Shown here piece by piece: positions 1,009 to 62,854 of a stretch of DNA of 64,000 nucleotides. The stretch lies in the NCBI GenBank assembly GCA_015680685.1, contig MNCI01000690.1:274487-338486 (forward strand). Direction: 5' to 3'. The position numbers and the translations under genes were made by a program. This DNA is from Gnetum montanum (Eukaryota; Plantae; Gnetophyta). Each line of letters opens with the position of its first letter. The stretch's first letter is position 1. The notes under the pieces are model-generated. The model saw only the letters and a list, made by a program, of their open reading frames with translations, had not been told where the DNA came from and searched no databases.

Positions 1009-1391
1009 AGCACCAATGTATGTGTCTGGATAAGTTAAGGTTTTGGTAGTGTTCATGATTCTAGGCTCATTTTTGTCCGGATGCCAACAAGGGATGAAAT
1101 CCAATGGAATGGTATGATTTTTGCATATGGGCAACATGGTCCTTGGAAGGAGGCTCTACAACTTTTGTGTATTGGTTGGTTCAAGGATACAAGTTGAATA
1201 AGGCTTCTAAGATTTTGGGACATTCAACCATGCCTTTGTGGATGTGAACCAATTAGCAAAAGCCCTTCTATAATCAACATGGTAGACTTCAAGGTGAAGA
1301 AACAAAATCTCAAAAATCTCTTTTAAATCATTCAAAAAATCACCATAACCTTATAAAGCTTGTTCCATTGAATGGCCAAAATGTGCCAACA
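1000..1391 (-). mobile_element. Truncated LTR-like fragment (terminus TGTTGGCACA on -) abutting the RT of element A
   Basis: Element A RT reading stops exactly after KDDFPLPS at 1392 and is followed on - by TGTTGG..., a typical LTR 5' terminus. No partner LTR is in the window. Confidence 0.5.
1042..1170 (+). pseudogene. PLS-class pentatricopeptide repeat (PPR) gene fragment
   Basis: Manual translation FGSVHDSRLIFVRMPTRDEIQWNGMIFAYGQHGPWKEALQLL matches the PLS PPR consensus [42 protein letters not shown]. Flanked by stops. Confidence 0.75.
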
Positions 1392-2015
1392 GCTAGGTAG
1401 TGGGAAGTCGTCCTTTATAGTGGCTATGTTTAAATCACAGAAGTCAATGCAAATGCGTATACTACCATTCTTCTTAGGAACAACTACAATGTTTGATACC
1501 TACTCAGAATAGTCAACAGCCTGGATGAAATCGGCTTGGTAGAGCTTTTTGATTTTAGCACGGACTACTAAAGCCACCTCAGGTCTAACTTTTCATGCTT
1601 TTTGTTTCACTAGTTTAATTTTTTCATCAAGGATGATACTGTGTTGGATGATTCAGGGGTCTAATCCTGGCATGTTGGTATATGAACATGCAAATGTTTT
1701 AATGTTGTCTTTCAGTACTTGAGTGATGTCGTTGACAAGTTGTGATTCTAGTAGGGCACTTAATTTCAATGTTCTGGTTTCACAGTCGGATGTAGTTATG
1801 GGGACCTCAACAAGAGGATCTTTGGTGATATTATTAGCCTCTAGATCTAAAGTCTTGGCCACGTTTTTAGGCCAGGTCGATATTTCTTGAGTAGAAGCTA
1901 CTGAGTTAGTATAAGCGCATGGGTCTAGATCCAAGGATTCTGGATTGATTACCCTTTTAACCTCCCCGTATGGTCCACTAAGGGATAGTGTTGAAAGGAT
2001 ATTCTTGGTGGCCAT
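1392..2015 (-). pseudogene. Element A pol N-terminus (reverse transcriptase start)
   Basis: VLKDNIKTFACSYTNMPGLDP*IIQH...VSNIVVVPKKNGSIRICIDFCDLNIATIKDDFPLP is a Tat-type RT start. Confidence 0.9.
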
Positions 2016-2637
2016 GTGCTTGCTCCTACCAATTTAAACCAAGAGCAAAGTGAGTGACTCTTGCTTGATGAAGGATCATTTAAGTGTAAACGGGCATTAG
2101 ATAACTAATTTATGTACTAATGAAATTGTAGAATGTAACGATCATCATGGCAGTTTTAGGCCATACTGGGCCATGTGATATTCATGTTAACTTGTCATTC
2201 TAAATGAGTGTATGCAGTATTTTTGATTTTTAAATTTTTGTGTGAACAATAATTTTACGAGGCTTTAAAATTTTATGGATTTTATAAATATTCATATATG
2301 TATATATATATATATATATATATTGATTTTAACTTTTCATCCCTTCCTTTGCATAATAATAACTTTCTTTGGCTTCATCTCCAGAGGCTAGAATGATGAG
2401 GAATATAGACCAACATAAAACAAAGATGACATAAATGAAAACAAATTTTAAACATGGTGAAATTTAAATAAAATAAAATAAAATAAAATAAGAGAAAATA
2501 AAATAGAATTTTATGGGTTTAAAAGGGGGTTTTGAAGTGAGGGGAGGGGGTTTTTTGCTACGTGAGTTCTTGGACTGCAACGACTCTAGGAGTGCAGCAT
2601 GAGCTATAGTGTCAACGTCAGTGTGAGCAAGGCAACC

Positions 2638-5600
2638 ATGAAGGACAAGGGCAGAAGAAAGGCAAGGTGAGACAAAGGGAAGAGGCAAGCAGATCTGGTG
2701 TTTGTGGAGGAGGGTGAAGAGCTTACATAGGTAGATTTATTTTCTCCTGCCTTTCCCCAGTATTTATGATCTGCGTTACCCAGGATAGAATTTTATGGCT
2801 ATGATTTTGGGGTTGTTTCAAGGTTTGTCTAGGATTTGTGGCATAAGCATGAATTCTTAGGGCATGTGTGCAGGGTGTCATGGGTTCCAGGGATATCCTG
2901 CACAATGTGAGCTTTTGGGGCTTCCTGCAGTGCAAGCTTTTTTAACTTTCTTGGGCATCTTGGATCACAGGGTTTTTGGGCTTTCTTGAGCATCCTGGGT
3001 CACAAGGTTTTTAGGCTTTCTTGGGACTTGAGCACTAGGTTTCCTAGTAGCGTGAGTGCCAGGAGAAGCAAAAGCCATCGTGAATGCAGGGGAAGGCTAG
3101 TTTTCTTTTTGCTTGCAGCATGAGCCATGTTATTGGGAGGTTTCTAGCATCAATTTTTTTCTTTTCTTGTGCCAACATGAACAAAAATTTCTCTGGGCAG
3201 CGTGAGCTGCCTATTCCTAGCATGAGTGGCTAAACAGGCCCCAATGTGAGTGTGGGTGAATAGGCCCCAACGTGAGCATGGGTGAACAAGCCCCACCATG
3301 AGCGTGAGTTCAGAACATCAACGTGAGCAGCGTTACAGGGGGAGAAGAGGAGTTTTCAGCATGACTACCAAGGTCTTGGGTAATGTGAGCACATTCCCAG
3401 GGCAAGCTGTAGGTTTCCAGCGTGAGTTTGCAAGTTCCAACATGAGTTGGAATGTAAGAACCCAATGTGAGTTTAACACTAGGGCAGTTCCCAGCATGAG
3501 CTGCCAAGGATGCCCAGCATGAGCTAGAATGTGAAGATGTGTGTTGTTTGTTGGGATGCACATTACTTGCTGGTTTCATGTTTATTTGTTTATTTGTTTT
3601 CCTGAGATGGATTATTTAAACCTTGCTTCAATCAGTGTTTATGTTATGTACTTTTGTGTGGGTTTCTTGTGAAATGGATTTCAATGTACCCCATTGAGCG
3701 TCAGATACACTAAATGAATATTGGTGTCCTTGTCTCATGGGGTGGAACTGTGTATTTTTTTTATGTGTGTTTTTTTTGTTTATGTGATTTTGACCTATTG
3801 TTAGCACTTACCTAATGTTTTTGACTATATGCAAGGGACCTAAACCTTCTCTTCTCGTAGTTGAGCTTGTTGGTGTACTTACTTGGTTTGGCCCCTTTGG
3901 ACCGAACACACCTCCCTATGACATGTGCATTAGGCCCCATGTGATATGGTTCCACCATGGTGTCAGTTCATTTTTGTCATTTATCCTGCAAAATTTTAGT
4001 GTGGTTATATGGTCTCACCTGAGTGATCAGTTGGGTCATGATGTTATTGAGACCGTGTTACCCAGGTCTACATAAAGCATGCTCGCCTTTGTTACCAACA
4101 TAGATGAGGGACTTTTTAGAGTTGAGGGAGGCCCTACTGAGGGTCCTAGATCTACTCATCCCTTGACTTTGTGTGGGAGCTACCTACTTGTAGTCATTAC
4201 AACAGCAGCAACACACTTTTCTTAGCCTTCCGTGTGCACACTCTATTCCAAAACCCACTTGGGACAATATATAAAGTAGACAGGTATGCATTCTTGTGTC
4301 TTACTTTAATTTTTGATTCCTTTTTAAATTTTATGTCATCATCTAAATGTAAATGTTGTTTTCCTGTGCAGGCCTCATTTTGATGAGAATGGGATGCACG
4401 ATGATGATGTTGGGCTTTCCTTAGTGTGCATAGCGCTAAAGACATTCATGGCAGGCCCCATTCCTCGTGCCGTAGTACTGGACCAAATAAAAGTGGCTAT
4501 TGTTGACTACCATAGGCAATTTTCAAGAGCTTTTGAATGTTGCTAAGTTCGTAGTTGGTTACATAAGGATTGGTCTTCTAATGGGCCAATTTTCCCTCAA
4601 AGGATTGATCCTGCACCCACCCCACCTACACCATTCACAGATGGTAAGTGACCACACTCTAGACTCCATTATCCTTTTTGTTGCATCATCGTGTACTATG
4701 CTCTTTTTTAACTCTTCACTTTATGTTTTTCTTTTACAGCAGCCATCATCCTCGAAGAAGTTACCATTATAACAGGGCATACTGAGGCCACACTTTTTAC
4801 AAAATATGGGACGATAGAGTAGTTGCAAAAATGGTTGCAGAAGAAAGCTTCTGATTTGATCATCAACCACCTTACCCGGGTAGGTCTGATGGACTTGTTC
4901 ACAGCTTTGACTCCTAGCATTCCATCTACTGAGATGGTCACCATTGTTGATTCTTTCAGTGATGATGCTTCCCATTTTATCACACGGGTTCAAGGAGTCA
5001 AGGTATCTTTCCACCTGACCACTAAGTTCCTTTCTAATCTTTTTGGTATGCCCATGGATGGTGCCATGGTGACCATAGATAAAGCAACTAAACACGAACA
5101 AGTCATAAGAGAGCTTGAGTAGTGGTTAGGCATGTCTTGGGGTCCTAAGGACTTTGCCATGCGAGATGATACCTGATCAATGGAGATGAACTTCCTGTAT
5201 CCTCTCTTCTGGGCATGGGCATTCCCCAAATCTTTTTCTCAAGGAAGAAACCTTAGGATTAAGTCCACACATGTGATACGTGCAGTTTTAGAGATGGGCA
5301 TGTGCTATAACTAAGCACATTTTCTCGGATCTGGTTTTCATGGAGAGATTTTTAGGTTATGTTCAAACATCCATACTAAATCCCATTTTACATTTGCTTC
5401 CTTCGCAGGGTACCTACGTAGGTTTTCTGAGTTCCTAGTAGTTTATGATGATAACCACTATATTTTGAGGGATCGTTCACAACTGTCCTACCCTTGGATT
5501 CGCCATTTTTTTAGCACCACTAGATCCCAAGATCCACCAGAAGACATCGAGGAATTAGTATCAGTCACTACTGGGGGTGCCGCTAGCCATTCCCATCATT

Positions 5601-7564
5601 CCCATGATAGCTTGGGATTGGAACCACCTAGGCTATGCACGTCTATTAAAAGAGATGAACGTTTGATTGGTGAGATTGTTAGGAAGTCTAAAGCAAAGGT
5701 GAAGAGGAAAGAATGCCCAAGGGAGCCTCCTCTAGATGTGATACCACCAAGAGCAAAGAAGATCTGGTTTGTATTGCTAGTGGAGGGTAAGTAGTTTATT
5801 TTATTGTTAAATATTTATTTTTATTTATTGTTTTGGCTTATATGTTATTAAAAGTACATATATGCTATGTGATACTAACTCTAGGATTCTGGTATTATTC
5901 AGAGGAAAGTCCCGAGAGGGAGAGAGAGGTCATGGCCCTAATGGTTGAACTAGAAGCAATCATCACAGGACCTGAGGAGGAAGGAAAAGAAGGGGAAGAA
6001 GAAATTGAGGAACTTTAGCTTTGCAAGAGGAAGATGTGCCAAGCATCGTAGGGATGAAGCTTGTGGAGGCCTTGGATGCACTTAGGAATTTGAGTAATGA
6101 AAGAGATGTCCTCGATGGTTTCTTTGATGGCTCTTTGCAACTGGGTGATACGCCTAGGCTAAACAACAAAGGGCTTTTTGGTATGTTCCCTTTAGCTCAA
6201 TCCATATTCTGTCCTTTAATTTTCATGCGTTGTTCTTGATTATCTTGATTATTTTTAGCATCAAAAGTAGATGCTAAAATTTCTGAGGCACATACATCCT
6301 AGGCAGCGACGTCAGGATCACAAGTTCTAATTGAAGATACCTCCCCTACTCAGACCACATCAACTAACCTGCTAAGGCCATGGCCTGAGATGCCTAGCAA
6401 AATGGACTTTGTTAAGGGCATTGTTAATGATGTGGTCGCTCACCTACGAGAAGCTCATCCAGAACTAGGTATGTGTACATTACATGTCATGCCAAGTGTC
6501 TAGTTTCATTTGTGTTTCTTTGTGTTCATTGTTGATTATAGATGATTCATGTGTGCGGTATTTACACCTGCAAGTGCCAAGCTTCAGTGGGATCCTTATG
6601 AAGCCACTCATATCGATGCTCTCCCTAAACTTCTAGGGAATATTGAGCAAGTCCCTAAGAAGTTTTATGATGTAGTTTTCGGTTGCGTCGTATAGAATGC
6701 CAAATTACTTTGTACTTGTAGGTGTTTGGTTGAATATCTATGGGATGAGGTGCATTCATTGAAGGAAGCACTAGTGAAGGAAACAGAGGAGAAGAGGGAT
6801 CTCCAATCCCGTTACAATTTTTCCACTGCTAGGTTTTCTGATGATAGCACTTGGCGCACATCTGAAATCACCTATGCATGTTACTAGATAGTTTTGAATA
6901 GCAAAGTGCAGGTGACACAGGATCTAGCAGAACAAAGAGCACAAATGGATTTTCTGAACAGGAAGTGTCATGATTGGAAATCCTTTGCTACCAAAGTATG
7001 GAAATGGGGCCAAGACCAAAAGGACCACAAGCATCAATATAAGAAATGGTTAAGGGAAGAGTCAATTGAACATCACCAGATGGAGATGTTCATCGATGGG
7101 TTAGGCTTACAGTCTACTTATGATAGATTTTCCGAGGGCATTGAGGTGGAGGGATCTCCCGAGAGAACCATTACTACTACCTCCAGGGAGGCTTCAATAG
7201 GCATGTTCTCTTTGAAGCACCCTACCTGGACTTCAGTGGACAAGGGGAAAACTTTGGCTGGTATTGATCTTGGCCTGGAGGAGGATTGGGCAAATGTGCC
7301 CGAGGAGGAGATTCTACAATGTTTGGAGGCCAACTTAGGGCCCTCCTCACTCATGAGTGTTTTATTATTTATTTTTGTATGGTTTTACTATTTTCATTGT
7401 TAGTGTTACTGTTTTTCTTAGTTTTTCATTTATGATTTTCTTCACTACTCTTACCTATTTTTTTGTTTTCTGCCTTCTTATAGGGACATGTTAATGATGG
7501 AGCTAGCCCCAGTGGAGCGAGAGTGGATGATGAAGAGGATCTTGGGGACTAGCCCCCTCCATGA
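2638..7564 (+). pseudogene. Element A antisense 8-exon accessory gene (FCP1-like pseudo-phosphatase + transposon-protein domain + acidic + coiled coil)
   Basis: GT-AG introns inferred at ~2731-3835, 4284-4371, 4644-4739, 5787-5902, 6181-6258, 6469-6541, ~7353-7483 (last donor mutated). Exon peptides are homologous to those in B and C. Confidence 0.8.
3045..3525. repeat. AGCGTGAG-type motif cluster in intron 1 of the element A antisense gene
   Basis: Many copies of agcgtgag / agcatgag / aacgtgag / aatgtgag (CpG-deamination variants). Confidence 0.8.
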
Positions 7565-7924
7565 GCTTATTGTTAATCAGACTTTGGCTATTAAATGTTT
7601 TGGATTTTTGGATATTTGATGGAAATGTATGGTTGACAAGTGTAATAATATGGATCTAATTATGCCATAACGTGTTGGAATTTTACCACCATGTTGACGT
7701 ATCATTTGTTTTTTGTGTTTGCTCTTTTTATTTATTTTTTTTTTCAAGTATTATCATGAACATATGCATGTACCTAAATGTAAAATGGAGGAACAAAATG
7801 TAAATCAACACTTGTAAAAGAGGAAAGTAACGAGAAGGCATAGATCGAGACTGCAACTTATATCATTTAAACGAAAATTTGACATAACATAGTGAATGTT
7901 TGTAAACTTGCGACATATTGAACC

Positions 7925-8165
7925 CTAGTTTAAAGCCATTTCGAGCTATGCACATTAGTTTAAAGTCGTGGTGGACTGTTGCATCTATTGTCAAAGAAAG
8001 AAGGATTACCAATTTTATGCCATAGTGAGCCAAAAGAAACAACAGTTTTAGAAAGCTTTTAAGAGGAACCGACCATTTCTGACCATGGCTAGTTTATCAT
8101 CATTGCAAATGTTCGCTGGTAGTTTAACATCATACTAGATAATTGGTAGTTTAATGTCATTCCGA
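7925..8165 (-). repeat. Hairpin-TAAACTRG motif copies downstream of the element A gag-PR stop
   Basis: On -: AGCT-CGAAAT-GGCT-TTAAACTAG, AGTC-CACCAC-GACT-TTAAACTA and several degenerate copies. Confidence 0.7.
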
Positions 8166-8182
8166 ACATTTAGTGATTCGCT

Positions 8183-11100
8183 CTAGTTATTGAGTTGCCT
8201 CTTAATATTTTGTAGCTTAATGTGAGGGGTTGGGCATGTAGGTATGATCTTATACTCACCGTCCCCTTCACTGGTGATGTCAAAGGGTAATTTCAACCAA
8301 GAGACATCAATGGGAATGGCTCCTATGTTTGTGTTGTCTGGTGTTTCCTCAGTTTCAGTAGGGTTGTGAGTTAACATTGGGTTCATGTCTTAAAGCATGC
8401 TCATAGTTCCTTGCTTAGGCTCAACTAACTCAATTTCTGACTCTTGATCCACTCCAGGGTGTGAGGAAGTAAGCGATATTGTTGTATCCCCATGTATGAT
8501 GATTTCACCGCCCTCGTAAGGTAGTTGGATCTCCTAATGGATCGGTGAGGATACGGCTCTAAGTTGAGCTAGCCAAGGACGTCCTAAAATCAGATTAAAC
8601 CCTGGCATTTTGTCAACCACTACAAATGTAGCTGATGTGGGGAATTGGTCCCTAGCTATGAAATCTAAGGTAATCGTACCTTTCACCCCAACATGGGAAC
8701 CATTGAAGGATTTTAGAAAAGAAGTTTTCATGGGCTGTATTTGTTTAGTAAGTCCCAATTTTTTGATGACCAAAAAGGATATTACATTCTTTGCTGCACC
8801 TTCATCAACATGCACCCTAAGTATCTTGAAATGGTTAACTTGTATTGTTATGAACATAGGGGCTATTGTGACTTCTCTTGTTTTCTCATCTAGCTTAATG
8901 TCATTAGTATGAAACTCTAGGGATGTAGTCTTTGATTCTTGATGTTGAGGAGACAATACTGCATAAATGGATGGTTCATCTGTAGGAAGATCCTCACTAA
9001 TAGGGATCGAAGTCAACATCATATGAGAGCTTCTCGATTACGAAGATATTACTAGGTCATATAGACTTAAAGAAGTATTTTTTTGTTTCAATGCTTGTGT
9101 GACCTGGGTCAATGCGCTTGCTAGGTCTTTACCGTTTGGGGCACCCTTTTCTGTAGAGATTTGGTCCATTTGACCTAACATTCATATTTCTCGTGGAGGG
9201 ATTTTTGCATTGGTAACCAAGGATGTTGGGTTCAGGACACAACCTGTGACATTATCCTCATTTTGATAACTCATACTAGGCTCATTAATGGGTGGACCGA
9301 TAAAAACAGCGTTTAGCAGTATGGGCTTTGGTGGTCCTAATTTGTGCTGATGGTTTTCTCTTTCCAGGTACTCTCTTATTAGTCTATTGGCAAGATGTTC
9401 TCATAGAGGTCGCGGGGGAACGAAGGTGGGTTGTGTGTTAGGGTATTTTGGCACCCGGATCACAAAGGGAATGGGTTGGTTTTCATATGATGTGGTTTTT
9501 GCTATAATAGAAGGAGGTACATGGATGACGAATGGTTTTTGTGGTGTAGGGGATGTGCATATGATGAAAGGGGTTTGAGGAGATGTTGGGATAGGTGTAT
9601 TTTCTAAAGGCCTACGAATCATAAATGGGTTTCATGGGACGTCTGGTCTGTTCTCCACATTGATGGTATTAATCACATACGGTGCATCATTAGTATTGAA
9701 AGAATCCTTGTAGACTCTCATGGGTTGGTTTTCAGGTCTTACTAGGTTTGCCTCATTGAATACTACGTCACCCCTATCAATCATGTGTTGTATATCATGT
9801 TTCAAGGTGAAACAGCAATCAGTCCCATGACCACACCATTGGTGATATTCACAAAACCTATCCAACCTAAAGCCTCTTGGAATGGGGGGCTCATTAGCTG
9901 TTGCTAGAGCTGGGTTCTTGGCCAACTCACAAAATTGATCATGTTTTTGAGAGGCCGTAGGAAACATTTGTTTATGTTGGATTAAACCAACCTTTAGAAG
10001 TTGATCAAGAAATTGTGAAGGCTTCATAGGTAAGGGTGTATATTGAGCGGGGTCTTTTCTTTTGAATGTACGGGCATGACCCATGTTGGTGTTTCTATTT
10101 GATAAAGGTTCATGTGTAGATGCAGGTGTGTTTATTTCATAGCCATTTGGGATAGTGGGCTATTTTTCCTTTTGTCTTGGATGGTTATGTCAGGCTATCT
10201 CAGCCGCTACTGCTACCATTGTTTTGGATTTATCTTTCCTCATATGTTGGCTCCTAAAAGTTGAGTAAGCTCGGTCATTGCTTGTTTGTGTAGCCTCCTC
10301 TATGTCCTTAATTTTCACAAATGCTTGGCTCAAGGTACAGGCTTTCAAATAATAAAGTTTCAATTTAATAAAATCACTCACGACTACCTTAAGGATGGTA
10401 AGTAAATATGTTTCAAGGATGGGCTCGTGAAGTTCATTCAAGGCTACACTCCATCTTTGGATGAATTTCTATGCTGGCTCTAACGGCACTTATTTAATCT
10501 GAATCAAGCTATACAATGTTGCTTCAGGTTTTAGATTGTACTTGAAACAGGTGACAAACTGGTGCAACAAGTCCTCTAGAGAAGATATGGAGCTACAGGA
10601 TAAAGCTCAATACCAATCTAGGGCTTTTCTCATTAAGGACATAGCAAACACATGTAGAATTACATGAGGCCATGCTTGAAGCAATAGACATTCTATTCGG
10701 AATGTCACTAGGTGGGAATTTGGGTCTCCCTCTCCATTGTACTTGGTTAGCTAGGGTAATAAGACTCCCTTTGGTAAGGTTAACGGTGGAACTGAGGGGT
10801 CGATTAGATCATCTTGATAGAAGTCTAGTACTTTGACTTCCTTGGTGTTTACAGTTTTGAGACACTTTAATTCTTCTGCTAATGAGTGCGTCATTCACTT
10901 TGTGTCTTCCCACTCTTAGATAGTAGGTAAACCAATGGATTGAATGGATTGTGATTGATAATAATTCGATTGTTGCATCATTTGTGGAAAGACAAATTGT
11001 TGGACTGTCGTTTGTTGCGATGGGACAACATTCGGGGTTGAGACTATGGGGTGTGGTACATTGTTGTGAGTAGACATGTTTTGCTATACAGATGGTGGAA

Positions 11101-11938
11101 CCCACTACCTAGCCACAGGTTATGAAGTGATACCCTGAATGTGTTGGGTTGAAGTAATCGATGGTGCCCTGTGGATTTGCACTTGAGGTATGTAATGGGT
11201 GGACGTGGAAGCTAGTATGACCGATGGCATCCCAATCACTTGAGGCTGAAAGGTCGATCCTGCATTAGTTTGGAGATGGAGTTGTTGGGACTATACTTGC
11301 AAAGGTATGATGGAAGTAGACGTATCAGATTGAATATTGAGCACGGAGAAGATGGGAATGGAAGCAAGTATCTCCTGTTAGGAAATTGGTGCTTAAGTGT
11401 TTGTGGATGAAGGAGGAAGCATAGTTTCTTCCAAAGAAGGATGGAATAATGAGTTTGTATGGGCATGGAGACTGACGGTATGGTATAAATCCCCATGTTC
11501 AGATTGGGCTGTGAAGTCATCTTCCTCATCTCCACTCTAAGGCTCTATTGGAGGTGGTTGTAAGGCTTGACTTCTTGCCATGAGAAGCTAGGATATGAGT
11601 CTATGATGGTGTTCGGAAAGAGGGATTATATCAAAAGTTAAGGGGATAAATTCATGACCTCCTTTATAAATGAGTTCATAGTCTCGCTTTGCTTCCCTTT
11701 CTACACGATAGATAGGCAAGTTGGCTTGGATCTTGACATAGATGAAGTTATACTGTTCAGGTGTGAGAGTTGCATAAGTAGGGTCTTTGCCCTGTAGCCT
11801 GAGTGACTGGTGCATAGGGCCTTGGGGGTTTATCTACTCAATAACAATTATGGGTTCCATAGCAGTTACAAGGTTTGAGGTTTCAGCTCTAAAGTCGGAG
11901 ATCCGAAATGTCACTGGGTTAATCTGGGAGGATTTCAT
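8183..11938 (-). pseudogene. Element A gag-protease
   Basis: HQSLRLQG N-terminal motif, KYNGEGDP capsid-like region, RFCEYHQWCGHGTDCCFTLKHDIQHMIDRG (Tat/Ogre C-x2-H-x3-GH-x3-C), protease RVHVDEGAAKNVI...FNLILGRPWL. Many stops and frameshifts. Confidence 0.9.
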
Positions 11939-11964
11939 AGTGAGTGTAAGTAAACTGGACTAGA

Positions 11965-12210
11965 TGAGCTGAGCATGAGCAATTGTAGCGTGAGTAGCTG
12001 CAGCGTGAGTACTACAGTGTGAGTAGTTACAGCATGAGTACTGCAGTGTGAGTACTGTAGCGTGAGTAGCTACAACGTGAGTACTGCAGCATGAGCAAGC
12101 TTACAGACAAGGTGAGTGACTGATAGCGTGAGAGACAATAAGCTAATAGCATGGGCAAGCTGATAGATAGCATGAGTGACTGATAACCTGAGTGGCTAAC
12201 AGCATGAGTA
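11965..12210. repeat. 14-15 bp tandem array (AGCGTGAGTA(G)CTRC) in the element A 5' leader
   Basis: tagcgtgagtagctgc agcgtgagtactac agtgtgagtagttac agcatgagtactgc ... directly visible. Confidence 0.9.
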
Positions 12211-12338
12211 GGTAAGGACAGAGTGGGTAAGTCAAGCTAAGCATGCACAAGTTAGCTTGACAAGCTGGGCTTTAGTTTTGTGCAGTATTTGGACAGGTAG
12301 TGTGATCCACGTTTTGGTAGATGATAAACAAGTCTAGT

Positions 12339-12354
12339 CCTCCTTCTAGCGCCA
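12339..12354 (-). promoter_or_regulatory. Primer binding site TGGCGCTAGAAGGAGG (complementary to plant tRNA-Asn 3' end)
   Basis: Exact 16-mer 6 nt inside the LTR end ...GGTCAGTACA. Confidence 0.85.
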
Positions 12355-12360
12355 ATTTAC

Positions 12361-14052
12361 TGTACTGACCTAAATCGTCGGTGTAAGGCTGGAAGGAAAA
12401 AAAATACCAAAAGATTATCAGGTAGACATAGCTGACCCTGCCTTCACCTAAGGGCAAGATGGAAAAGAAAACAAAGGTAGAGTGCCTTGGATGGTCTGCA
12501 TGCAAATCAACCAAGGACTTCCCCAAGCGTAAACTACGGCTTGCGCTAGGGTTATCGTAACTGATGTTTGAAATGTAAATAGTGCTGTACAAAATGCAAA
12601 CATACTGTACACAGAACAGTATTGCAAACAAAACATAAACTGAATGTAAAACAAAGTAAATAATATAATGGCTGGAAAAATGAATTGTATTGTATTTCTT
12701 AGAAAAGATGTGCACTAGTCAAAGTGTAGTTGCGCTTGTAGATGGCAAGTCAAGTGCCAAGCCTGGGGTGATGCGATGTGTTTCAGAAGTGCTTGGATGC
12801 TAGGAGTCAAGTGTGCCTAATTGCCCAAGGATTGCTGGTCTGATTTTCCTAAGTCGTCCACCTTCAAAATTGCCAACCCTGTTTAGGTGAATTGACAGGG
12901 TTTTTCTAGGTTCGGGCACGGAATTCAGAAATGAATCAACAGCTGAGAATTGAGAGGAAAATAAATCAAGTGACACGTGTTCGATGGACAGCTATGCGTG
13001 AGTTGGACATGTGTGGGCAAGCTACGTTTTTTACCAGGTGCAATGTATCTTACAGTGTGCGTCGGCTTACTCAAGCTAGCTTGCGCTCATGGAAGCACAT
13101 ACGATTTACAGCATAAGAGCTTGACAAACCAACAAATGATGAACATTTACAATGAAATAATAATGTACAACAAGAGAAATTGACTCTAGCTCGCTTGAAA
13201 CTTCTTAAGCTCTGAATTGACTGTTGTAGGATGTCGATCTGGGTGGCTTTATGGTTGTTTGAGGCATCCAAGACTTCCAGTGTGAGTTGATTTTGGCTTG
13301 GTGTGTCCTTAGCATGCTCATGCTGCACTCACGCTGCTAGCATGACCTCAACATGACCTCAACGTGAGTGAGTGAAAATGATAGATTTTCCACCAAATTT
13401 TGATTTTTGAAGCCTAGTTCTTGAGTGCAACTACTGTTTGATTGTGTTTTTAACCTTAGGAATGATCTAAAAATCAAAAATTGAGTCTGATGTGCCCTAT
13501 TTTATACCACTTTTGGCAGCTCATGCTGGACTCACACTGCCAGCATGAGTGTAGCATGACCACAGCATGAGCTACAACATGACCATAGCGTGAGCTATAG
13601 AAACCTATAATTTTGAACCTAATAGAGGTTGGAACTTGAATCTTGTCAATGATGGACCTTGAGGATGATTTGCATGTTGGAAATTAGATCATTTTGACTC
13701 AATTTTTGGCTTTGAAAGTTGCTCACATTGCACTCACGCTGCCAATGTGACCTCAACGTGAGTGACAGCGTGAGTGAGGAAATTTACACCTTTTGATGCC
13801 AAAATTTGAATCTCTAATTGCTGAAACTTGGAGTTGACATCTGTGACCCTTGAGGATGGCTTGCCCCTTTAGATTTGGCCATCTTTGAATTGATTTTGAG
13901 GCTATTGGAGTTACTCACGCTGAGGGCGAGCTAGCTTGATAGTGTGAGCAAGCTGGACCTAAGTTCCATGCCTTAGTCAAATTTTTCCTCCCGCAAGCTC
14001 GAAATGGCTTAAGTCATTTTCAAAGTGCTAAGCTGAAATTAGTGGTGTTTCA
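12361..14052 (-). repeat. LTR (TGAAACACCA...CAGTACA), ~1.7 kb, shared between A' and A
   Basis: Bounded by a PPT on one side and a PBS on the other. Same TGAAACAC 5' terminus as the B and C LTRs. TATA-like TATAAAATAGG at ~13500. AGCGTGAG motif cluster at 13310-13950. Confidence 0.85.
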
Positions 14053-14068
14053 TTGGTCCCTCTTTGTT
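14053..14068 (-). promoter_or_regulatory. Polypurine tract (ACAAAGAGGGACCAA) of element A'
   Basis: Immediately precedes the TGAAACAC LTR start. Same sequence context at 28325-28340 in B. Confidence 0.75.
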
Positions 14069-15259
14069 GATGTCTAGAGGAATCCACCTGAGAGGCATCG
14101 ACAAAGAAGCACAAAGCACCATGAACAACCAAGTACCAAACATTAACCATCAACCCTTGGCTGGACGTCATCACACCGTGTTCAAAAGTACATGGGATTC
14201 GGGGAATGCAGTTCAAGATGCAAGGGGATTGGTTATATCTGGGTAAATCAAGAGTTGATCAAGGGATATGATTGCTATTGGAATTGTGAGATAGGAATGC
14301 TCTCACATGAACAAGCTATATCATTGGTCCTTGTTAATAGCCGATTTTTAACAGACTTGGAGCCAAGACATAGGAGGTGCATTCTTTGGGGAAACGGGAC
14401 TCTTATAAAGTGTTTATGGGGCCTGTTGTAAATAGCCAAAGCCACGTGATGATGTGCAACATGATCTCTTTGAGACATAAGTGTAATTTTTTTCCAAGAC
14501 AATTGCCTTCTCACCTGGGACTTCTATGAGAATAGCCAATAGTCTTTGGTTTATAACGTTAACGGGGTCATGAAGACCTTTTCTGTGTATTTTTCTCTTT
14601 CACCTTTTTGTTCTTTTTCTTTTTCTTTGTTTCTTATTTTCTTTTTGTTTTTTTTTTCTTTTGTTTTTTTCTTTTCTTATTCTTTTTGGTCTTTTTGAAA
14701 AAGCTTGCTTTTAGTGCTATGCTTGTGCTCATGTGTTTTCATTTTGCATCATGTATTGTGTACTATGTTTTGCATTGCAACCACTTGGAAAGTTACAGTG
14801 TGCAATAATGTATCAAGAGCTTTGGGGGAGTAGAATGTATCCAGGGGGTATGATTAAATAGGACAAAGGGAACATGATGGGGAAAAGGGAATGTATCAGG
14901 ATTAGGGAATGTACTTATGAACGGATTGATTAACCCAGTTGTAGGCATTAGGAAGAATGTGATACCTTATTGTCATGATGAAGTGCATCTGTGCACAAAC
15001 GCCTCAGGCGTGTCATCCTACAAACACAACTCCAAGAATACAAGAAAACCACAAATGAAATGGTCAACTAAGCACTTTAAACTTGAAAACAACCAAGGAG
15101 ATAGAGCCACCATGTGCAATTTCAAAGCAAATGGAATCATGAATGGCATCAGCTTCATCAGGGTCCATGGGACAAATTATGTAGCAAGTCTTTGTGAAAC
15201 ATGTACAGCCAATTGTAGCAACACTTCTTTTCAAGTTTTGCCTAGTCATCGATGATGTC

Positions 15260-15680
15260 ACCAGTTTATAGTCTTAGTGAACCGTTGTGGGTTAGTTTCA
15301 CATCATAACCCTTTGGACAATGTCAGTTTAGTGTCATAGCGGATGGTGCACTACTAGTTTATAGTCATAGCAGAAGTGAAGAGGCAAACCAGTTTATAGT
15401 CTTAGTGGACTCTGGATGCTAGTTTCACATTATGGCAGATGGATGTGGTAGTTTAGTGTTGTACCGGATGGAGCTCTGTGGTGTCATTTTATTTTCATGA
15501 CTCCAGGACATTTCTGTGGTGCCAATTTCAAGTCATAGGCCTAGGACCGTTCTGTGGTATCAGTTTTAAGTCATGATGCCAAGATCATTCTGTGGTATCA
15601 GTTTTTTAAGTCATGATGCTAGGACCACTTTGTGGTATTAGTTTTAAGTCATGATTCCAGGACATTACGTACCTTAGTTT
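15260..15680 (-). repeat. ~30-35 bp degenerate tandem array (hairpin + TAAACTRG) after the A' integrase stop
   Basis: About a dozen units containing yagttta(t/a)agtc on +. Confidence 0.85.
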
Positions 15681-15889
15681 GATTAGACATAGTACCGTTT
15701 CAGGTATAGATGATTTGTAGGGTTAGCGAACTCGTTCACGTCCATGTCAGCAAGTTTGCATGCTCCATTATTGTATGCCTTGGTGACTAAGTAAGGCCCT
15801 TCCCAATTGGCTGAGAATTTTTTTGGATGTTCACGGATAGCCTTAAGGACTAAGTCTCCTTCTTTAATTGGGCATTTATGCAGGTCATG

Positions 15890-17520
15890 TTTGTTTCATT
15901 AAGGAAGGCATTATCCATGTTTATGCATGAGCATCACCACAAAGAAAGAACTAATGGCAATGTTGTACACGCTAGAAAAGTTCAAGCACTATGGGATTGG
16001 TTACAAAGTACCTATGCATATGGCTCACAATGCAATCTGCTTCCTCATGAACAAGCCAATGGTGAGCCCTCATGTTATACAGTGGCTGGTGATCTTGTAG
16101 GAATTCGATCTCACTATGGTAGATTGAAAAGAAACTGAGAATGTGATTGTTGATCACCTCTCTCGCTTAAGATGGAATAATAAAGAGGAGGAGAGCTCAC
16201 TCTTTGATTAGTTTCCAAATAAAGTCCTCTTTATAGAAGCAATAAGTAAACAAATTCCTACAAAAACAATATGGTATAATGACATCCTCACATATTTTCT
16301 CACTCAAGAGATGCCACAAGACTTGTATTTTAGGAAAAAGTAATAATTTCTTCATTGGGCCAAATATTTCATGGAAATCAACGAACACCTTTACAAGGTG
16401 TGTGCCAATGGCCTAATTCTTTGGTGTGCCCTTGATGAAGATCAATTGCATGTTCTTCAAGATGCTCACTAAGGGCCTCGTGGAGGCCATTATGCAGGGA
16501 GATGCATGACCATAAAAATCTTGATGGTAGGATATTCTTGGCCTATAATCTTTAGGGATGCCCACCAGTTCATCAAGTCTTGTGAATGTTGTTAATGAGA
16601 TGGTGGGATGACTACTTGCATGGAAGGTCATCAATAGTGGATTCAATCACTAAACCTTTCAACATATGGGGCATTGCCATTATGGGTTCCATCACACCCA
16701 TGTCCAATGAAAAAGTGTATATTATAGTAACAGTTGACTACTGCACAAAATGGGTAGAAGTAGTAGGTATTACTGATTGTACAGCATCCACTACTACCAA
16801 ATTTATACAAAAAAATATTGTGAATAGGTTTGGGGTGGCATGTTCACTAATTTCTAATAATGCAACTCATTTCATAGGTGCCACATTCTAAAGGTTAATG
16901 CAACACTTAGAGGTAGAACATAAACTAATAACACCTTACCATCCCTAATCCAATGGTCAAGTAGAGGTAACCAACCAAGAGATTACAAAAATACTAATGC
17001 GAAGCATCAGCAAATATAAGAAGGATTGGAGTACAAAACTTAATGATGCTCTCTAGGCTTATCATTCAACTTGGAAACTTCGTATTGACTATTCTCCCTA
17101 CGAGCTAGTGTATGGGAAACTTCTAATGCTCTTGATTCAATCCAAGTTTTGTACACTCTCAACAGCCTATGAACTAAATCTTGACCTAAGTCTAGCACAG
17201 AAAGAAATATTAATCAAGCTGAACATGTTAGATGAAAATCGATTAGTGGTCCTATCCTTGAATGAGATGAACAAGAAATTCAACAAGTAATGTCATGACC
17301 TTAGAATCAGGAAAGTAAAACTTTAACTAGGAGATAAAGTTCTCTACTAAAATCCCACACATGTACCCTAAAAGACAAAATTCCAAACATTGTAGGAGGA
17401 ACCTTATGTAATTAATGAAACCTTTCCCTCTAGGGTCATGTTGATACACAAGCCTAAATGCCTAAGTAAAAAGCAATTGGTCAACATTCAATAAGTAAAG
17501 GTTTTTCTCAAACCTCAATA
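15890..17520 (+). pseudogene. Element E RNase H-integrase remnant
   Basis: TTKKELMAMLYTLEKFKHY...EFDL...ENVIVDHLSRL; GPRGGHYAG; PFNIWGIAIMG...VTVDYCTKWVE...IVNRFGV; TPYHP*SNGQVEVTN. Confidence 0.85.
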
Positions 17521-19669
17521 GGCTAGTGTAATTACCACCTCGACAGATGGACAACCACATTCTATTTTTCATATCTCCTCCTTCTAGCTTAGTCATGGGG
17601 GAGATGGTCATCCATGCTAACCATAAAATTGGCTTCTTAGTTTTTATACTTTTTATTTTTTACATTTTTGATTTTTACAAATTATTTATTTTACAAATTC
17701 TTGATTTTTGAAATTTTTCTAATTTTACAACAATTTGGTTTAATTGTGATATTTTCTCATCTTTGCTGATAAATTTGCTTTATTACCATAGGACATAGTG
17801 CCACTGTTGTTGTTTACTAATGATGGTTTGTGCTTAATGTGTGATTGTTGATGCTTGGTCTCTATTTTTGAATTTTGATGTCCAATGACTTTGACATGAT
17901 TATTTTTCATGGAACAAGTAATGAGTTCATGTCATCTACCCAACTAATGAACTCTATGGTTTTCCTTGTTTTGGAAATTTAAGGTCCCTTTTCATTAAGA
18001 AACTTTTAATCAATTGGTGACCTTGGTAGTTCTAGAATTATGAAGGATTCAAAGGTTTGTAAAGGATGTGACTTCAAGGGAACTCAATACTCTTTGTAAT
18101 CTTCTACTTGCTTGAGTGATTGTGCATTTTTTCACAAACTTCTTACCATTCCACATCAACCACTAATAGAAAGCCAAATAACATCATTGCATGGTGTGGT
18201 TCCCATTCAAAAAAAATGATGAGAATTCAAAGCACACTCCTTCAACACCAATAATTCCTCACATGGTGTGGTTCCCATTTCAAAAAAAATAAAAAAATGG
18301 GAATTCAATGCACACCCCTTAGACAAATAAATGGGCTACAAGCAAACAGCATGCACCTATGCCTAAAGGTACCCTCTAACTAAGGCTATTTCTCTCACTT
18401 CTTACGTCTCTTTTCTTCTCTTTGTGGAATGGTGGTTATTTTGTGGAAGCACTCTAGTTCCTTAAGTGGGTGGATCAATCTTAGAGTGGTGATGCAAAGT
18501 CATTGAAAGTAAATGATTTTGTTCTAGATTGAGGATGAAACTTCTCAAGTCATTTTAACCACAAATTCCACAAGGGACTTCTTATGACCCCAATTTGAAA
18601 CTCCATTCCACCTCCTCTATCATACATCCATGCTATTATAACTCACCTACTATCATGTTTTGTGTTATGCTCTATGTTTTGGTTTGATGTGCTAGGATTC
18701 TTGGGTAGATTCTTTTGGGTTGGTCCTTAACTTGTCATGATCATTATATCAACTATCGGACCCATGAACTTCTTAGTTGAGGCTATGTAAGGGCAAAAAG
18801 GGCATGATCCTACTATGGGGAGGACCCACTTACATAGCTCTTGGTCTAGTTAGTTAAGGTTCCTTACCTTTGATATCGCTACAATCCTATCTTTCACATA
18901 TTCCATTGAGTATATCGCTCAGTGCTCCTTAATCTTTCATTTCATTCATCTACTAAATCAAATTTTCTCCATTTTTTCCAAATTTATGAGCTTCAACACC
19001 CTCTTCTCATATTTTCATATTGTTCCTAGTCCTTTAGGCTTTCATTTGATCCCAATTTCATATTGAAATTTTGACCAAATTCAATGGAAGTCAATGGTAG
19101 TCAATGGCTGCATCGACGAGGCCTCATCATTGCATCCAACCATGTCAACAAGGCCTCGTCGATACAGTGCATACATGCTATATATACCACCTAGCACTTA
19201 GGAATTTTTTGCAAATTTCTTATAACACACAAGGAGTTTTTGTAATTTTCTCATAGGCCAAAACCTTCCAAAGCTCATAACTTCCCAATCATTTTTCCAA
19301 ATCACTTCATTTTTTAACCTTACACTTATCATAGGTAAGATCTTTGTCATGGGGGCTGCAAACCTTAAAGTTTCCTATGAAAAATCACTGAAATGTTTTC
19401 AAAAAATTTTCTAGCTCCCCAAAAGGTTAATAACCTTAATAACATATAAACATTAAGTCTTTTAAAGATTAAACCTTCCAATAACCTTTAGGATGGTTTA
19501 TTAATGATAATACATAAATAAAACAACAATTAGATTAATTAAATCAATAATAATTACAACTTAGCCAAGTGTAACTATCCTTAAGAGATAAGGTATCCCA
19601 ATTACATTAAGGCTACACAATGATTGCTAATCCATGGTCTCATTATGATTATAGATAGCACCAAAATAG

Positions 19670-22550
19670 AAATGCCCATAGGAAGGAGAAACCTTGCAAC
19701 CATGGGAGAAGTGGCCTAGAGCTAGAAGGGGCCAACAAGGAAAAAGCTAAGAACTACTAGAAGGGACCCATGCAATGGCACCTCTTAATGAGGAGCCCAA
19801 AGTGGAATCTATCTAATAGATTCTGGAAGAAGAAGTGCTGACAAAAAAATCCCAAAGAGGAGAAGTGCCTAGACCTGTGCCAAGGTTACTTTGACTCAAG
19901 CTGTCTAGAAATCATCAAGACCAGAGAGACCTAAAGATCAGTTCTTCAAGAGATCAACTTTGGGCCATTTTTGGAGAAATCTCCAAAGGATGTCAAGACA
20001 CAACTATAAGTATCTTCTATGTGGCTAGTCATCACATCCAGTGGGGAATGGTACATGGAAGATGCATATATCTTCTAGAGTAATTGAAGGCTAGGGTTCG
20101 TTGTCAAAATCAAGGACATTTAAGTGTCCTATTTGGAAGAAACTATTGCATAGGCACTTGGGTTGCCTAATATAGGAACATAGCTAGCTGAACTATCTAG
20201 AAAAGGTGATCCTAAGGCCAAAGGGAAGTGTACCTAGTAATGTTACAAGGTTAACCATAAGGAGTATGATGCACTCACACCAGTGGAGCAAATTTACTTC
20301 AAGATTATGGCCTATCACCTCAATCCAATGATGAGGCCAAGTAAGGTAATTACCTTCTTTACCCAATCATGCACCACTCTAAGTAAGAAATTTTCCATTA
20401 ATCTTTTGTAGTTGATCTACTTAAAGATAGAAAAGCACTTCAAGGAGAATGAATGTGGAAGGAATACCTTGCCCTTTCCATGCCTCATCTGGAAACTCTA
20501 CAAGAGGGCAAGCATTATTCACTATTCTAATGATACCCTTAAGCATGCTTCCTTGGCCTCATGGTTAAAAATTATGAAAGATAAAATGCCAGCTACAACC
20601 TAAGAAGAGGAGTAGCCACCACCACCACCCACTCAGGAAACAACACCAGAGGCTTACACAGTCATGGAACATCTATGCAAAATCTGAGAATAGATCTTGA
20701 GTGAACAAGAGCAATGAGCATGAACAAGTGGGGCAGATCCATCTATATATTAATGAGTGATGAGTCACCTTGATGAGGTGGCTTGAATAATTAGTTAGAT
20801 GGAGAGAGGTGGTCCAACCTTCTCTACCCAGTGAACATAGCTACTTGCGAGGTCAGATCCCAATGTTGGAGAGGTGACAGTGTCACTATCAACACAACAT
20901 CTATTCCTAGAAATCTTTGGGAATGCCACCACCTTTTTGATGCAATTGGAGGAAGGTGAAGAGGTAACTGTCTTGGTGATGTAGCATCATGGATAGGAGA
21001 TAGCAACTAAAGTGATGGCTGATTGTGTAGCAAAAGCATTGAATACATCTACGGCATCTATACCAAATGTATCTTCATTTCGAGATGTGTAGACATTTGT
21101 AAGCAAAATTAGCAGGATATTAGATGTAGCCCAACATAAAAGGTTGCTAGAACGACTAGTAGAAACTAGGCAACTAACTCTGGACATCTTTGATCTTTTG
21201 AAAAACATCATTGTGACCCAATTAAAGCTACTTAACACAAGGGGAAAATGAATTATCCTAGTAGAGAAACTTGAAATAGTCCAAGAAAGAAACCAATGCT
21301 TTGCTGCAAAGGTTGCTAAACTTCATGACTAACTTGCAGATCCTATGATCCTCAAGCCAGCAATATCAAGAGATGAAGCTTTCAAATAGCTTCAAGAATA
21401 ATTCTAGAAGGCTAAGGAGGAGGTAGTTACAACCATCTTCAACCAATCCATAGCTGAAGTAGAAATGCACTCAATCTAAAAGGACTTGGAATAGATCTGC
21501 CAGAAGAATGAAGCCTTGACCGCACAAAATTATTACTTGTGAAATGTTGATGCTCAAAAGGATCAAATGTAGGAATTTCTTCATCAACAGTAGGAGCAAA
21601 TTACTAGGGTAAACACTGAATTGAGGAGATTGATTGCAAAAAATTGTAATCTATCAATGGAGGAAGTGTGTGCCTTACACTAGAAATTGACCATCGAAAT
21701 TGCCACCTAGAACAATGAGGCCCTCAAATTTGAGAAAGTGAAGAATCACTACAAGGACTAGGTTGGCTTGTAGAAGGAAGTAAATGAAAAACAAATTTAG
21801 ATGGCAAAGGTGAAACTGAATGAAGTCCTCCAGCAACTTCAACAAGGAAGAGAAATGTGACAGCCCATTGTTAATGCAATCAATGCCTACAATAAAGTGG
21901 ACATCCATTTAAAGGAGTTGCAAATCAAGGAGATGATAGAGTATATAGAGTTGACCAATCTTTGATATGCAAACTTGGTGATGTTGATTGCTAGATGGTC
22001 ATGGTCAAAATTGGAATAATAAGTGGCTAGCTTGTATTTGTTATATGAGGCAAAGTTCAAGCATCACAAAGATGCCAAGTAGAAGCTTGAGACTACAAAT
22101 ATTGAACTCGAAGTTCTCAATTCAAAGACCAACGATCAATCACTAAGAACCTAGCTAGATGAATGAATGACTACCAAGAGTTGAAAGACATAGTCAAGGT
22201 GTTTAACATCAAGTGCAAATAGTTCTCTACCTGGTTCATTAATGCAAAGGAGTTATTTCCAGTAATCCCATGTCCTTGGGATGTGCCCATTCCAACCCAC
22301 ATTGGGGAATCTATGTGGACAATGCATGATCCCTAGAGTAAGGAGGAGAAAATAAAAGCACTATTGGATGCTTCTCCCTCCCACCTGAAGTTGCAGTAGC
22401 AGTAGGATAGCCATACCCACCTCAATCATTGCCCATGCATGAAGCTAGTGAAGGTCTCTCAAAGCCTTAGGAACTGCCACCACCTAGGACCATTTGATCT
22501 TCTCCAACAAGCTTCACATCATCAAGGAATGTGTTGTCTAATTTTGAAGA
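19670..22550 (+). pseudogene. Element E 3' accessory ('env-like'/plant transposon protein) ORF, heavily decayed
   Basis: Purine-rich coding-like tract with ETIA*ALGLPNIG and TLPFPCLIWKL motifs, followed by an E/K/Q/L-rich coiled-coil-like stretch. Confidence 0.55.
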
Positions 22551-22798
22551 GTTGAGTCATGGTGTTCAATTTTGTGTCCTGAACACCTTCATTTTTTTGT
22601 AATTTGTGGATCCGTACACCTAGGCACTCCATTTTTTGTCAAGTCAATTAGTTTGTTTTGTTTGAAGAAAAGTTAGTCAATAATCTCATGCCTTCCAAAT
22701 TATGTAAAAAAACTCAAGGATAAGTTTTCATTTAGTCATGGGGGTATGATGAGTCACATTTATGGCTACGTCGAGTGCCCATAGCAAAAGTCATTAAG

Positions 22799-25203: not shown

Positions 25204-26260
25204 CATGGGAGAAGGTTCCCTCCTATTAAATTAACCTTCAAATCCCACTAAATCAAAATATTATAAAAAAATAACCAATATGTTAAAAACAAGAAACTAG
25301 TTATCTTTAATTAATATAATAAGGATTACAATCAATAGTTTTACAAACCACAAACATTCAAATCCCTCAAAACACTAAGATGACATTGCAAAGTAAAAGG
25401 CTCTACAACCAAATAGTAATTGTTCTCAATGTAAGGCACAACCAAATGAGATCTCTTCCACAAACATAGGATTGAGGTTCAAAACACACAAGAACATAAG
25501 AGACACATAAGTCAAACATGTATAATTAACATTGGAGCTATAACCACATTCTTCTACTCTCATAATGTGCTCTCATATAATCATCATCTTTCATCCATCA
25601 TGTCAAAACATGAAACACAATAATATTTTTTCCAAAAGCAAGATAAGAAACCTAGAAACCTTTTCCTGAGCTCAACTTGAAATTTTTTAGCTATTTCTAT
25701 CTTTTTCTCTTTTCATAGTTTTTTTCCACTTTGGAACTACCACCTTAGATCTTTTCTTAACCATATGGGTCATCTTTGGACGTTCAAAGATGTCTTCTAC
25801 AAAATCCCAACATTTTGATGAGATGTCTCCTAAGGATGTAAGACATCTCCTCTAGTAGTGAAATGTCTCACCTAAGATGTCTCCAAAAATTCTGGGATGT
25901 CTTCCCTAAGATATCTCCCAATAGGCTAAGATGTCTCCTTAGTAGCTGATATGTCTCCTTCACATAAGAGACATCTCCTATTAAATGTCAACTCTTAGCA
26001 AAGATGTCTCCCAAACATGTGGGATGTCTTTTATCACATCTCAATTCTTAGCCAAGACATCTCCTCAACCTCTAAGATGTCTTTCCAATACTCAAAACCT
26101 ACAAAAACCATCTATAGGAAAGAAAAAGAGAATCATAAGAGATGCTCCTATACCAACTCTTTGACCCTTCAAAAAGTGAACTCACTTGAATAAGGAAGTA
26201 GGGGTAGAATTGATCCCTGACTCGAAAAGTTTGGTATCATTCATCCATGCAACATCATCA
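25204..26260 (-). repeat. Element D 3' LTR (inner boundary approximate)
   Basis: First ~530 bp align by eye with 48526-49044 (e.g. tcctatta..ttaaccttcaaatccca; catccatcatgtyaaaacatgaaacacaataatattt). Confidence 0.8.
25775..26085. repeat. AGA(CG)TCTCC motif cluster in the D LTR
   Basis: Roughly 15 copies of agatgtctc / agacatctc / agatatctc. Confidence 0.8.
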
Positions 26261-29719: not shown

Positions 29720-30025
29720 ACCCAATTTAAGGTCTTGGTAGACCATCAGATGTACTAGTTTAAGGTCCTAGTAGACTACAATCTGCTAGTTTAAGGTCCT
29801 AGTGGACCACTATGCTAGTTTAAAGTCCTAGTAGACTATTGTGCTAGTTTATCGTCATAGCAGATAGTGGATGGGCCAGTTTAAGGTCGTAGCAGACCTT
29901 ATGTTCCAGTTTTACATCATAGTGGACAATCTGTGCAGGTTTATAGTCATAGTGGACTATCTCTACCAGTTTATAGTTATAGCGGGCTATCTGTGCCAGT
30001 TTATAGCCATAGTGAACTATGGATG
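29720..30025 (-). repeat. ~30 bp tandem array (hairpin + TAAACTRG) after the B integrase stop
   Basis: About 10 units such as ctagtttaaggtcctagtggacc and ccagtttatagccatagtgaact on +. Confidence 0.9.
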
Positions 30026-33634: not shown

Positions 33635-33950
33635 CTTACCAGTTTAAGGTCTTGATGACTGTGAATGGGTTTGAACATGCAAGGGATATTAACTTTGCCA
33701 GTTTAAGGTCATGGTGGACCGTAACATTGCGAAATCTAGTTTAAAATATGAAATGGATACTAAGGCTGCCAGTTTAAGGTCATGGTAGACCATACTCATG
33801 CTATAGTGTACATCAAAATGTAAATTGAGGTTGCTAGTTTAAGGTCTTAGTAGACCATTAACAGGTGGATTTTGAGAACTAAGGTCACTAGTTTAACGTC
33901 TTTACAGACCATGGTGGGTAGGCTTTGTAAAGATAGGTTGCTAATTCAAG
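33635..33950 (-). repeat. ~60 bp-spaced hairpin-TAAACTRG copies upstream of the B pol splice acceptor
   Basis: ccagtttaaggtcatggtggacc-type units at ~33639, 33698, 33769, 33834, 33888. Confidence 0.8.
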
Positions 33951-37656: not shown

Positions 37657-37693
<37 letters not shown>

Positions 37694-62820: not shown

Positions 62821-62854
62821 CATGTAGTATTACATCTCAACAAAGCAAGGAAAG

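Follow-up and report, generated by a model that had tools for sequence, protein, structure and literature searches.

CpG-centred words at the LTRs and antisense-gene promoters of three Ogre-like retrotransposons of Gnetum montanum, and their candidate readers

Organization of the elements and their antisense genes

The window, i.e., the whole 64,000-nucleotide stretch of Gnetum montanum DNA that was analysed, consists of nested, decayed Ty3/gypsy DNA with a GC content of 0.40 and a CpG observed/expected ratio of 0.04–0.65 per kb. It holds three related, decayed Ogre-like Ty3/gypsy elements, A and B on the minus strand and C on the plus strand, and an older Ty3/gypsy element, D, that was the host of the B and C insertions. 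A, B and C have one common order: LTR, primer-binding site (PBS), which we take to be of the tRNA-Asn type in all three, gag-protease, an oppositely oriented gene with many introns, and pol. About 6 kb lie between gag-protease and RT, and the antisense gene occupies this gap. In each element pol begins with its own ATG (2015 in A, 33503 in B and 61704 in C), located ~ 10 bases past a pyrimidine-rich AG that resembles a splice acceptor; by comparison with foamy viruses, the RNA for pol may arise by splicing or from a start of its own. The antisense gene stands head to head with the pol ATG, at a distance of 550–750 bp, in all three elements. TATA boxes given throughout are consensus matches, i.e., predicted promoters.

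The LTR of A (12361–14052, minus strand) has a PPT directly upstream (14053–14066) and a PBS directly downstream (12340–12354), and is therefore common to two tandem elements; the 3' end of the upstream tandem partner lies at 14053–15900. The gag-protease of A (8420–11581, minus strand, left end approximate), recognized by translation and by homology to the gag of B and C, is decayed by stops and frameshifts and has its ATG at 11581. The pol start of A (1290–2015, minus strand) is truncated in RT. Element B has a 3' LTR at 27038–28324, pol at 30050–33503 and a 5' LTR at 43491–44710, all on the minus strand. Pfam analysis of B pol gave the order RT, RNase H, a second, archaeal-type RNase H and integrase, with the second RNase H detected as RVT_3 (E = 2.6e-16) between RT_RNaseH and Integrase_H2C2. 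B is flanked by a 5-bp target duplication in which four of five bases match. Its terminal repeats can be aligned only over the first 20 and the last 140–200 bases (77% over 138), and with the alignment confined to the repeat ends we rejected them as sister LTRs. The mismatched repeats possibly arose by strand transfer between co-packaged subfamilies or by later conversion. The promoter of the B 5' LTR aligns with that of the C LTR (74% over 91 nt). The 5' LTR of C is located at 49045–50843 (plus strand), and C is without RT and RNase H, as its first pol codons run almost straight into integrase (61704–62820).

Several other features were observed around these elements. Tandem repeats of one 29–38 bp family are located behind the integrase stop of three elements (29726–30020, 62853–63330 and 15325–15666), and appear again, inverted, just upstream of the B pol start (33674–33858). 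Positions 15900–22600 of the plus strand hold an Athila-like element with an integrase and a long sense ORF; this ORF has a weak Transposase_32 match (E = 5.4e-4, short of the cut-off), and sequence resembling a coiled coil comes after it. The DNA around the Athila-like element is heavily CpG-depleted and gave no strong CpG word. Leucine-rich-repeat gene fragments, on both strands, are present at the left window end (1–1000).

The antisense accessory genes are decayed in all three elements, with 4–8 stops in each core exon. The multi-exon gene of A (2638–7550, plus strand, right end approximate) consists of exon 1 (2638–2730), intron 1 (2731–3835), intron 2 (4284–4371), intron 3 (4644–4739), a core exon starting at 4740 and a long-helix exon at ~ 6560–7340. 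The gene of B spans 34245–38990 (plus strand); its promoter, exon 1 and intron 1 (33980–35173) include a TATA box at ~ 34103, the ATG at 34245 and sites of the B word described below. The gene of C (55790–61175, minus strand, ends approximate) has sites of the C word in intron 1 and around a TATA box at ~ 61288. The two large exons can be aligned across A, B and C at 35–45% identity, compared with 60–69% for capsid and 50–54% for protease; the accessory protein is diverging faster than either.

Expression was examined by mapping three of the six listed raw RNA runs and one DNA run on A 2350–5790 at 80% likeness. Almost all RNA reads were less than 90% alike, which indicates that they come from relatives and not from the copy in the window. 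The oligo-dT (polyA) runs X14 and X16 gave ~ 200 reads each over exon 1, all with identical differences, and the 5' overhang of these reads contains two A words in the CA form. RNA depth in both runs was zero over 2810–3499. Five X14 reads join 4643 to 4754, and the 14 letters in between resemble the first 14 letters of the exon; these joins reflect excision of intron 3 as predicted, 96 nt long and with GT-AG ends on the antisense strand. A splice of intron 1 was not seen in the mapped RNA reads, and some reads cover introns 2 and 3. The antisense gene is thus transcribed and spliced in relatives. Summed DNA contig depth, which is not a copy number, was 128–171 over the motif-rich intron 1 and 2,596–15,044 over the remaining gene, introns 2 and 3 included, which shows a much stronger subfamily restriction of intron 1 than of the exons or of the two small introns. 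The contigs also carry deletions and duplications among the motif units of intron 1.

Searches for relatives of the accessory protein returned little. The antisense core had no match among 1.84 billion representative proteins and none among 1,968 candidates of near length, and the helical exon had none among 7,995 longer candidates. No relatives were found in metagenome or viral contigs, the PPT-LTR pattern was absent from the metagenome contigs, and PDB sequences gave nothing below E = 0.22. In Pfam, the core exon hit no family at E ≤ 0.05 and the helical exon had weak sub-threshold matches. The word-based protein search was also blind to the Athila-like ORF that Pfam weakly detects; the blanks therefore point to poor coverage or sensitivity and not to novelty. 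AlphaFold models, with pLDDT values of 35.8 and 38.8, were unusable and fold searches with them gave no usable match; the second model predicts long helices that would fit a coiled coil. The core, judged by eye, has the order helix, hairpin, helix of PMD and Transposase_32, which we treat as a lead only. A profile comparison of the core with the Athila-like Transposase_32 ORF gave a probability of 0.4%, and no DUF1985/PMD homology of the accessory protein was found by Pfam, PDB-sequence or profile comparison.

Distribution and spacing of the CpG-centred words

The first-pass annotation of this DNA had proposed that each element carries its own AGCGT-core word, massed in non-coding DNA around two promoters, in the LTR and in intron 1 of the antisense gene. 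We defined the words as A[AG]CGTGA[GC] for A, YAGCGTAR for B and RAGCGTAGT for C, and counted sites with CG, TG or CA at the word centre. With these CpG decay forms included, the words were present at all nine proposed intervals: A with 15 (3045–3525), 12 (11965–12210) and 19 sites (13310–13950), B with 13 (27440–28030), 13 (33980–35150) and 21 (44320–44630), and C with 19 (49085–50135), 4 (59705–59975) and 5 (61025–61395). Intact words in the respective intervals number 4, 4 and 5 for A, 3, 2 and 8 for B, and 2, 0 and 1 for C, and because they are so few it is the decay forms that carry the pattern. When only the flanks were fixed, the centre was CG, TG or CA in 48 of 56 sites in A, 48 of 54 in B and 31 of 34 in C, and both decay products were present, as had been proposed.

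Statistical comparison with order-2 Markov simulations indicated that none of 300 simulations per region matched the observed count, in ten of ten regions (for example, 11 sites against 0.61 expected in the A leader, and 14 against 0.04 in the C LTR). In a de novo scan, the top word of an element was identical from one of its compartments to the next. The density of the cognate word in regulatory DNA was 11.9 (A), 11.5 (B) and 6.8 (C) per kb, in comparison to 0–1.7 per kb for the same words in the regulatory DNA of the sister elements and 0.1–0.6 per kb in own coding DNA; the definitions were picked after sequence inspection, which inflates these contrasts somewhat, not to the size observed. 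The concentration of the words in non-coding DNA at both promoters is thereby borne out. The 3' UTR repeats are built of other units and are nearly without words. In A, the LTR, leader and intron 1 share no blastn alignment of at least 25 nt, and in B and C the compartments align with each other only as motif-bearing pieces of 30–40 nt. As the compartments of one element cannot otherwise be aligned, the flanks have changed in concert across non-homologous DNA. Both terminal repeats of B carry the B word despite their lost alignment.

The interval 11965–12210 had been assigned to LTR or intron 1; it is instead the leader of A, between the PBS and the gag ATG. Its array (11972–12208, plus strand) comprises 12 sites in one orientation, including a 14–15 bp tandem unit at 11987–12095. 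A TATA-like box at 11663–11668 (minus strand) lies ahead of gag and downstream of the PBS and the array; judged by its sequence, it could start a gag-only RNA. The 18 sites in intron 1 and the 5' portion of the A antisense gene (2596–3525, plus strand) are likewise all in one orientation. The earlier statement that the words occur in both orientations is consequently correct for the LTRs and incorrect for the A leader (12 plus, 0 minus) and the A antisense promoter and intron 1 (18 plus, 0 minus).

Within the LTRs, the words form head-to-head pairs. The A LTR has three head-to-head clusters within 13279–13950 (centres ~ 13336, 13540 and 13742, ~ 200 bp apart) with 9/11-bp steps, and a TATA-like box at 13500–13506 (minus strand). 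The B 3' LTR has three dyad clusters (centres ~ 27506, 27697 and 27904), the B 5' LTR a 50-bp tandem array at 44349–44627 upstream of a TATA box at ~ 44186, and the C LTR six 20-bp head-to-head dyads upstream of a TATA box at ~ 50190. Tandem arrays are present in the A leader and the B 5' LTR, with short ones in the A LTR and intron, and sites elsewhere are dispersed or in dyad clusters. A 19–21 bp inverted pair was found in 14 of 15 mixed-orientation clusters (A 3/4, B 3' LTR 3/3, B 5' LTR 2/2, C 6/6). Pair distances were phased at 10–10.5 bp in the A LTR, the B 3' LTR and the C LTR (p ≤ 0.0016 vs uniform distances, although pair distances are non-independent, since clusters of the same LTR are in part copies of one another, with spacer z values reaching 6.2 in A). 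Phasing was not seen in the B 5' LTR, the A leader or any of the three intron/promoter zones. Given the non-independent distances and the old duplicate clusters, the evidence is fairly counted as four LTR lineages that agree in spacing; these four LTRs are mutually unalignable. Dyad clusters recur every ~ 200 bp in two unrelated LTRs (A and B 3'), near the nucleosome repeat length, and in A this recurrence is partly due to an old duplication.

Element D served as a control. Its 3' terminal region (25785–26085, exact LTR edge uncertain) contains 11 palindromic GA[TG/CA]TC sites in a 53–54 bp unit, all decayed, with 20 bp between sites in four of ten gaps; an intact site would be a bZIP C-box. 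The internal region of D is gag-pol, with no room for an accessory gene. The first-pass annotation had named the same arrays in families lacking the gene as evidence against its proposal, and D agrees with this in part, being a gene-less element with a CpG-centred array of its own. The idea that LTR arrays require the accessory gene was rejected, since D has an array and no such gene.

Comparison with known systems

The first-pass annotation compared the words with VANDAL DNA transposons, whose VANC proteins bind CpG-free motifs in VANDAL non-coding DNA (YAGTATTAY and AGTTGTCC/AGTTGTAC, none with a CpG), and for which both binding and methylation loss were demonstrated (PMC5735166). The VANC domain is described as resembling the PMD of MAIN/MAIL1 (bioRxiv 2024.04.02.587720, PMC13547354), and PMD proteins as acting via promoter motifs (bioRxiv 2024.09.27.615353). 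The cis half of the analogy holds: a short family-specific word is concentrated in the non-coding parts of the element (introns, intergenic and terminal DNA), at both promoters and within a fast-changing intron, and the element has a fast-evolving multi-exon accessory gene with a predicted coiled coil. The words here, however, are CpG-centred in contrast to the VANC motifs, and the carriers are not MuDR DNA transposons, since A, B and C have LTR, PBS, PPT, gag, RT, RNase H and integrase. VANDAL tandem amplification is matched in part, by the A leader, the B 5' LTR and short A arrays. VANDAL is a more distant comparison than either the Sirevirus motifs or the foamy-virus Tas loop.

In Sireviruses, CG palindromes specific to each family are reported upstream of the LTR TATA box and also, if one is present, 5' of the env-like ORF; they were read as host-factor sites (PMC2829016, PMC4728375); the palindromes are also described as hairpins and as siRNA and indel hotspots (PMC4728375). 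Some Sireviruses without motif copies outside the LTR keep the LTR arrays (PMC2829016). The word distribution is the same here, namely a CG motif in many copies that precedes both the LTR TATA and an extra ORF and changes fast in number, so the pattern is of a known kind and ours is a variant. Unlike the CGG-CCG palindrome of the Ty1/copia Sireviruses, the AGCGT unit is a non-palindromic half-site in inverted pairs, the elements have the Ty3/gypsy order RT-RH-aRH-INT, and the extra gene is antisense, intron-rich and situated between protease and RT.

RT-RH-aRH-INT is the Ogre/Retand order (PMC6317226), and A, B and C resemble the Tat clade (Ogre, Retand/Grande) in this order, in having gag-protease apart from RT, and in an extra gene with a predicted coiled coil; antisense genes with their own promoter and a suspected regulatory role are known from this clade (PMC4408406, PMC11963269, PMC7264820). 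Tat extra ORFs often encode a PMD and a coiled coil (PMC4408406), and Retand antisense proteins are predicted DNA binders whose role is described as unknown (PMC11963269, PMC7264820). The published Tat extra ORFs lie 5' of gag in the sense orientation (Ogre) or between pol and the 3' LTR in antisense (Retand), in contrast to the protease-RT gap here, and they carry PMD or TRP28, whereas the present gene has several introns and no Pfam match. In foamy viruses, Tas binds an internal promoter and then the LTR (PMC3798896). The likeness consists of an accessory gene with an internal promoter, the same type of site there and in the LTR U3 (here at the sequence level), and a pol that is separate from gag and has an ATG of its own. 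Foamy viruses are animal retroviruses with tas in the sense orientation after env, and the analogy is one of logic, with no homology implied. In the main texts searched, few of them from subscription journals, no plant LTR-retrotransposon accessory protein is shown to bind a cognate motif, and no antisense gene between protease and RT is described.

Candidate readers of the words

From their sequence and arrangement, the words are likely protein-binding sites. The binder would be a dimer or oligomer, as suggested by the two helical turns between inverted sites and by the long helices predicted for the C-terminal half of the accessory protein. Flanks that are shared across unalignable promoters and differ in sister elements point to a subfamily-specific reader or to a copying process, and the simplest reader would be the product of the accessory gene, which evolves fast and has the word at its own promoter. 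We give about even chances to the explanation that the words are binding sites for the element's own antisense protein, which would activate its own promoter and then the LTRs of its own subfamily, in a positive loop modelled on foamy-virus Tas. Such a loop would start with low basal transcription from the internal promoter; the protein would then assemble as an oligomer on the one-way sites at that promoter, and afterwards on the phased LTR dyads of its own subfamily only. Host CpG methylation could break the loop, with the central CpG conferring methylation sensitivity. The protein may activate directly or may act, like VANC, by keeping the CpG sites free of methylation.

This self-activating loop is supported by the high cognate and low sister densities and the flanks shared across unalignable compartments, by the recurring 19–21 bp inverted pairs with 10–10.5 bp phasing in the LTRs, and by a fast-diverging protein whose gene is transcribed and spliced in relatives and has a subfamily-restricted intron 1. 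Published precedents, namely the PMD ORFs of Tat elements, the likeness of PMD and VANC, the promoter motifs of PMD proteins and Tas, argue for it by analogy. The loop is weakened by the protein being without a sequence or fold link to any DNA-binding family, and by protein distances that do not track motif likeness: protein identity is 42% and 45% for A-C, equal to or above the 42% and 38% for B-C, though the B and C words both have a TAG flank, a comparison of three decayed copies that has little power. It is further weakened by the array in the gene-less D and by some Sireviruses that have LTR arrays only (PMC2829016); by the absence of phasing in the leader, the intron/promoter zones and the B 5' LTR, together with clusters that are partly duplicates; and by the intron 1 splice that was not seen in mapped reads.

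The strong rival is that host transcription factors bind the words and that the two promoters of a subfamily have both become adapted to a single such factor, which we regard as quite possible but somewhat doubtful. Genomic RNA and accessory mRNA would then be made together, and the accessory protein would do other work. CGT[GA], common to all three words, is what we take to be the NAC-family core, LTR motif arrays are general enough that the gene-less D has one, and no DNA-binding domain was found in the accessory protein. Motifs in the LTR and before the env-like ORF of Sireviruses were explained in this manner (PMC2829016, PMC4728375), although Bousios et al. identified no known site that these motifs have in common (PMC2829016). 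However, a host factor that reads only the AGCGT core has no need for flanks that match within an element and differ between sisters, and three different factors would be required.

A more specific reading, which we consider unlikely though not far-fetched, is that the antisense gene encodes an anti-silencing factor: a remote PMD/VANC-fold protein that, by analogy with VANC, would oligomerize on the 10-bp-phased CpG words, keep them unmethylated and license its own subfamily only, with word and protein co-evolving as a private code that counters methylation by the host. Least probable, and in our view improbable, is that the words are by-products, either copies from reverse-transcription slippage and template switching or RNA hairpins and small-RNA sources, and not protein sites: tandem units at 11987–12095 and 44349–44627, deletions and duplications between units in relatives, the 30–40 nt pieces common to compartments in B and C, and the hairpin-forming, siRNA- and indel-prone palindromes described for Sireviruses (PMC4728375) speak for it, but most sites are dispersed with unrelated spacers, sites are nearly absent from coding DNA and the 3' UTR repeats, the unalignable B LTRs keep one word and a 20-bp dyad, and the one-way A leader and intron arrays cannot form hairpins among themselves.

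The role of the extra genes of the Tat clade, which are often antisense, is presented as an open question (PMC7264820, PMC11963269); the same holds for the protein that binds LTR motif arrays. In the window, each of three diverged accessory genes goes with a matching word of its own at two promoters, which offers a clean test of cognate against sister words. If host factors bind the words, the elements are a further case of the Sirevirus pattern, and an anti-silencing factor, if true, would be the first VANC-type system in a retroelement. If the element's own protein binds them, the most abundant plant retroelements would use private factors for their own regulation or release from silencing, and subfamily-specific bursts in very large genomes would become easier to explain.
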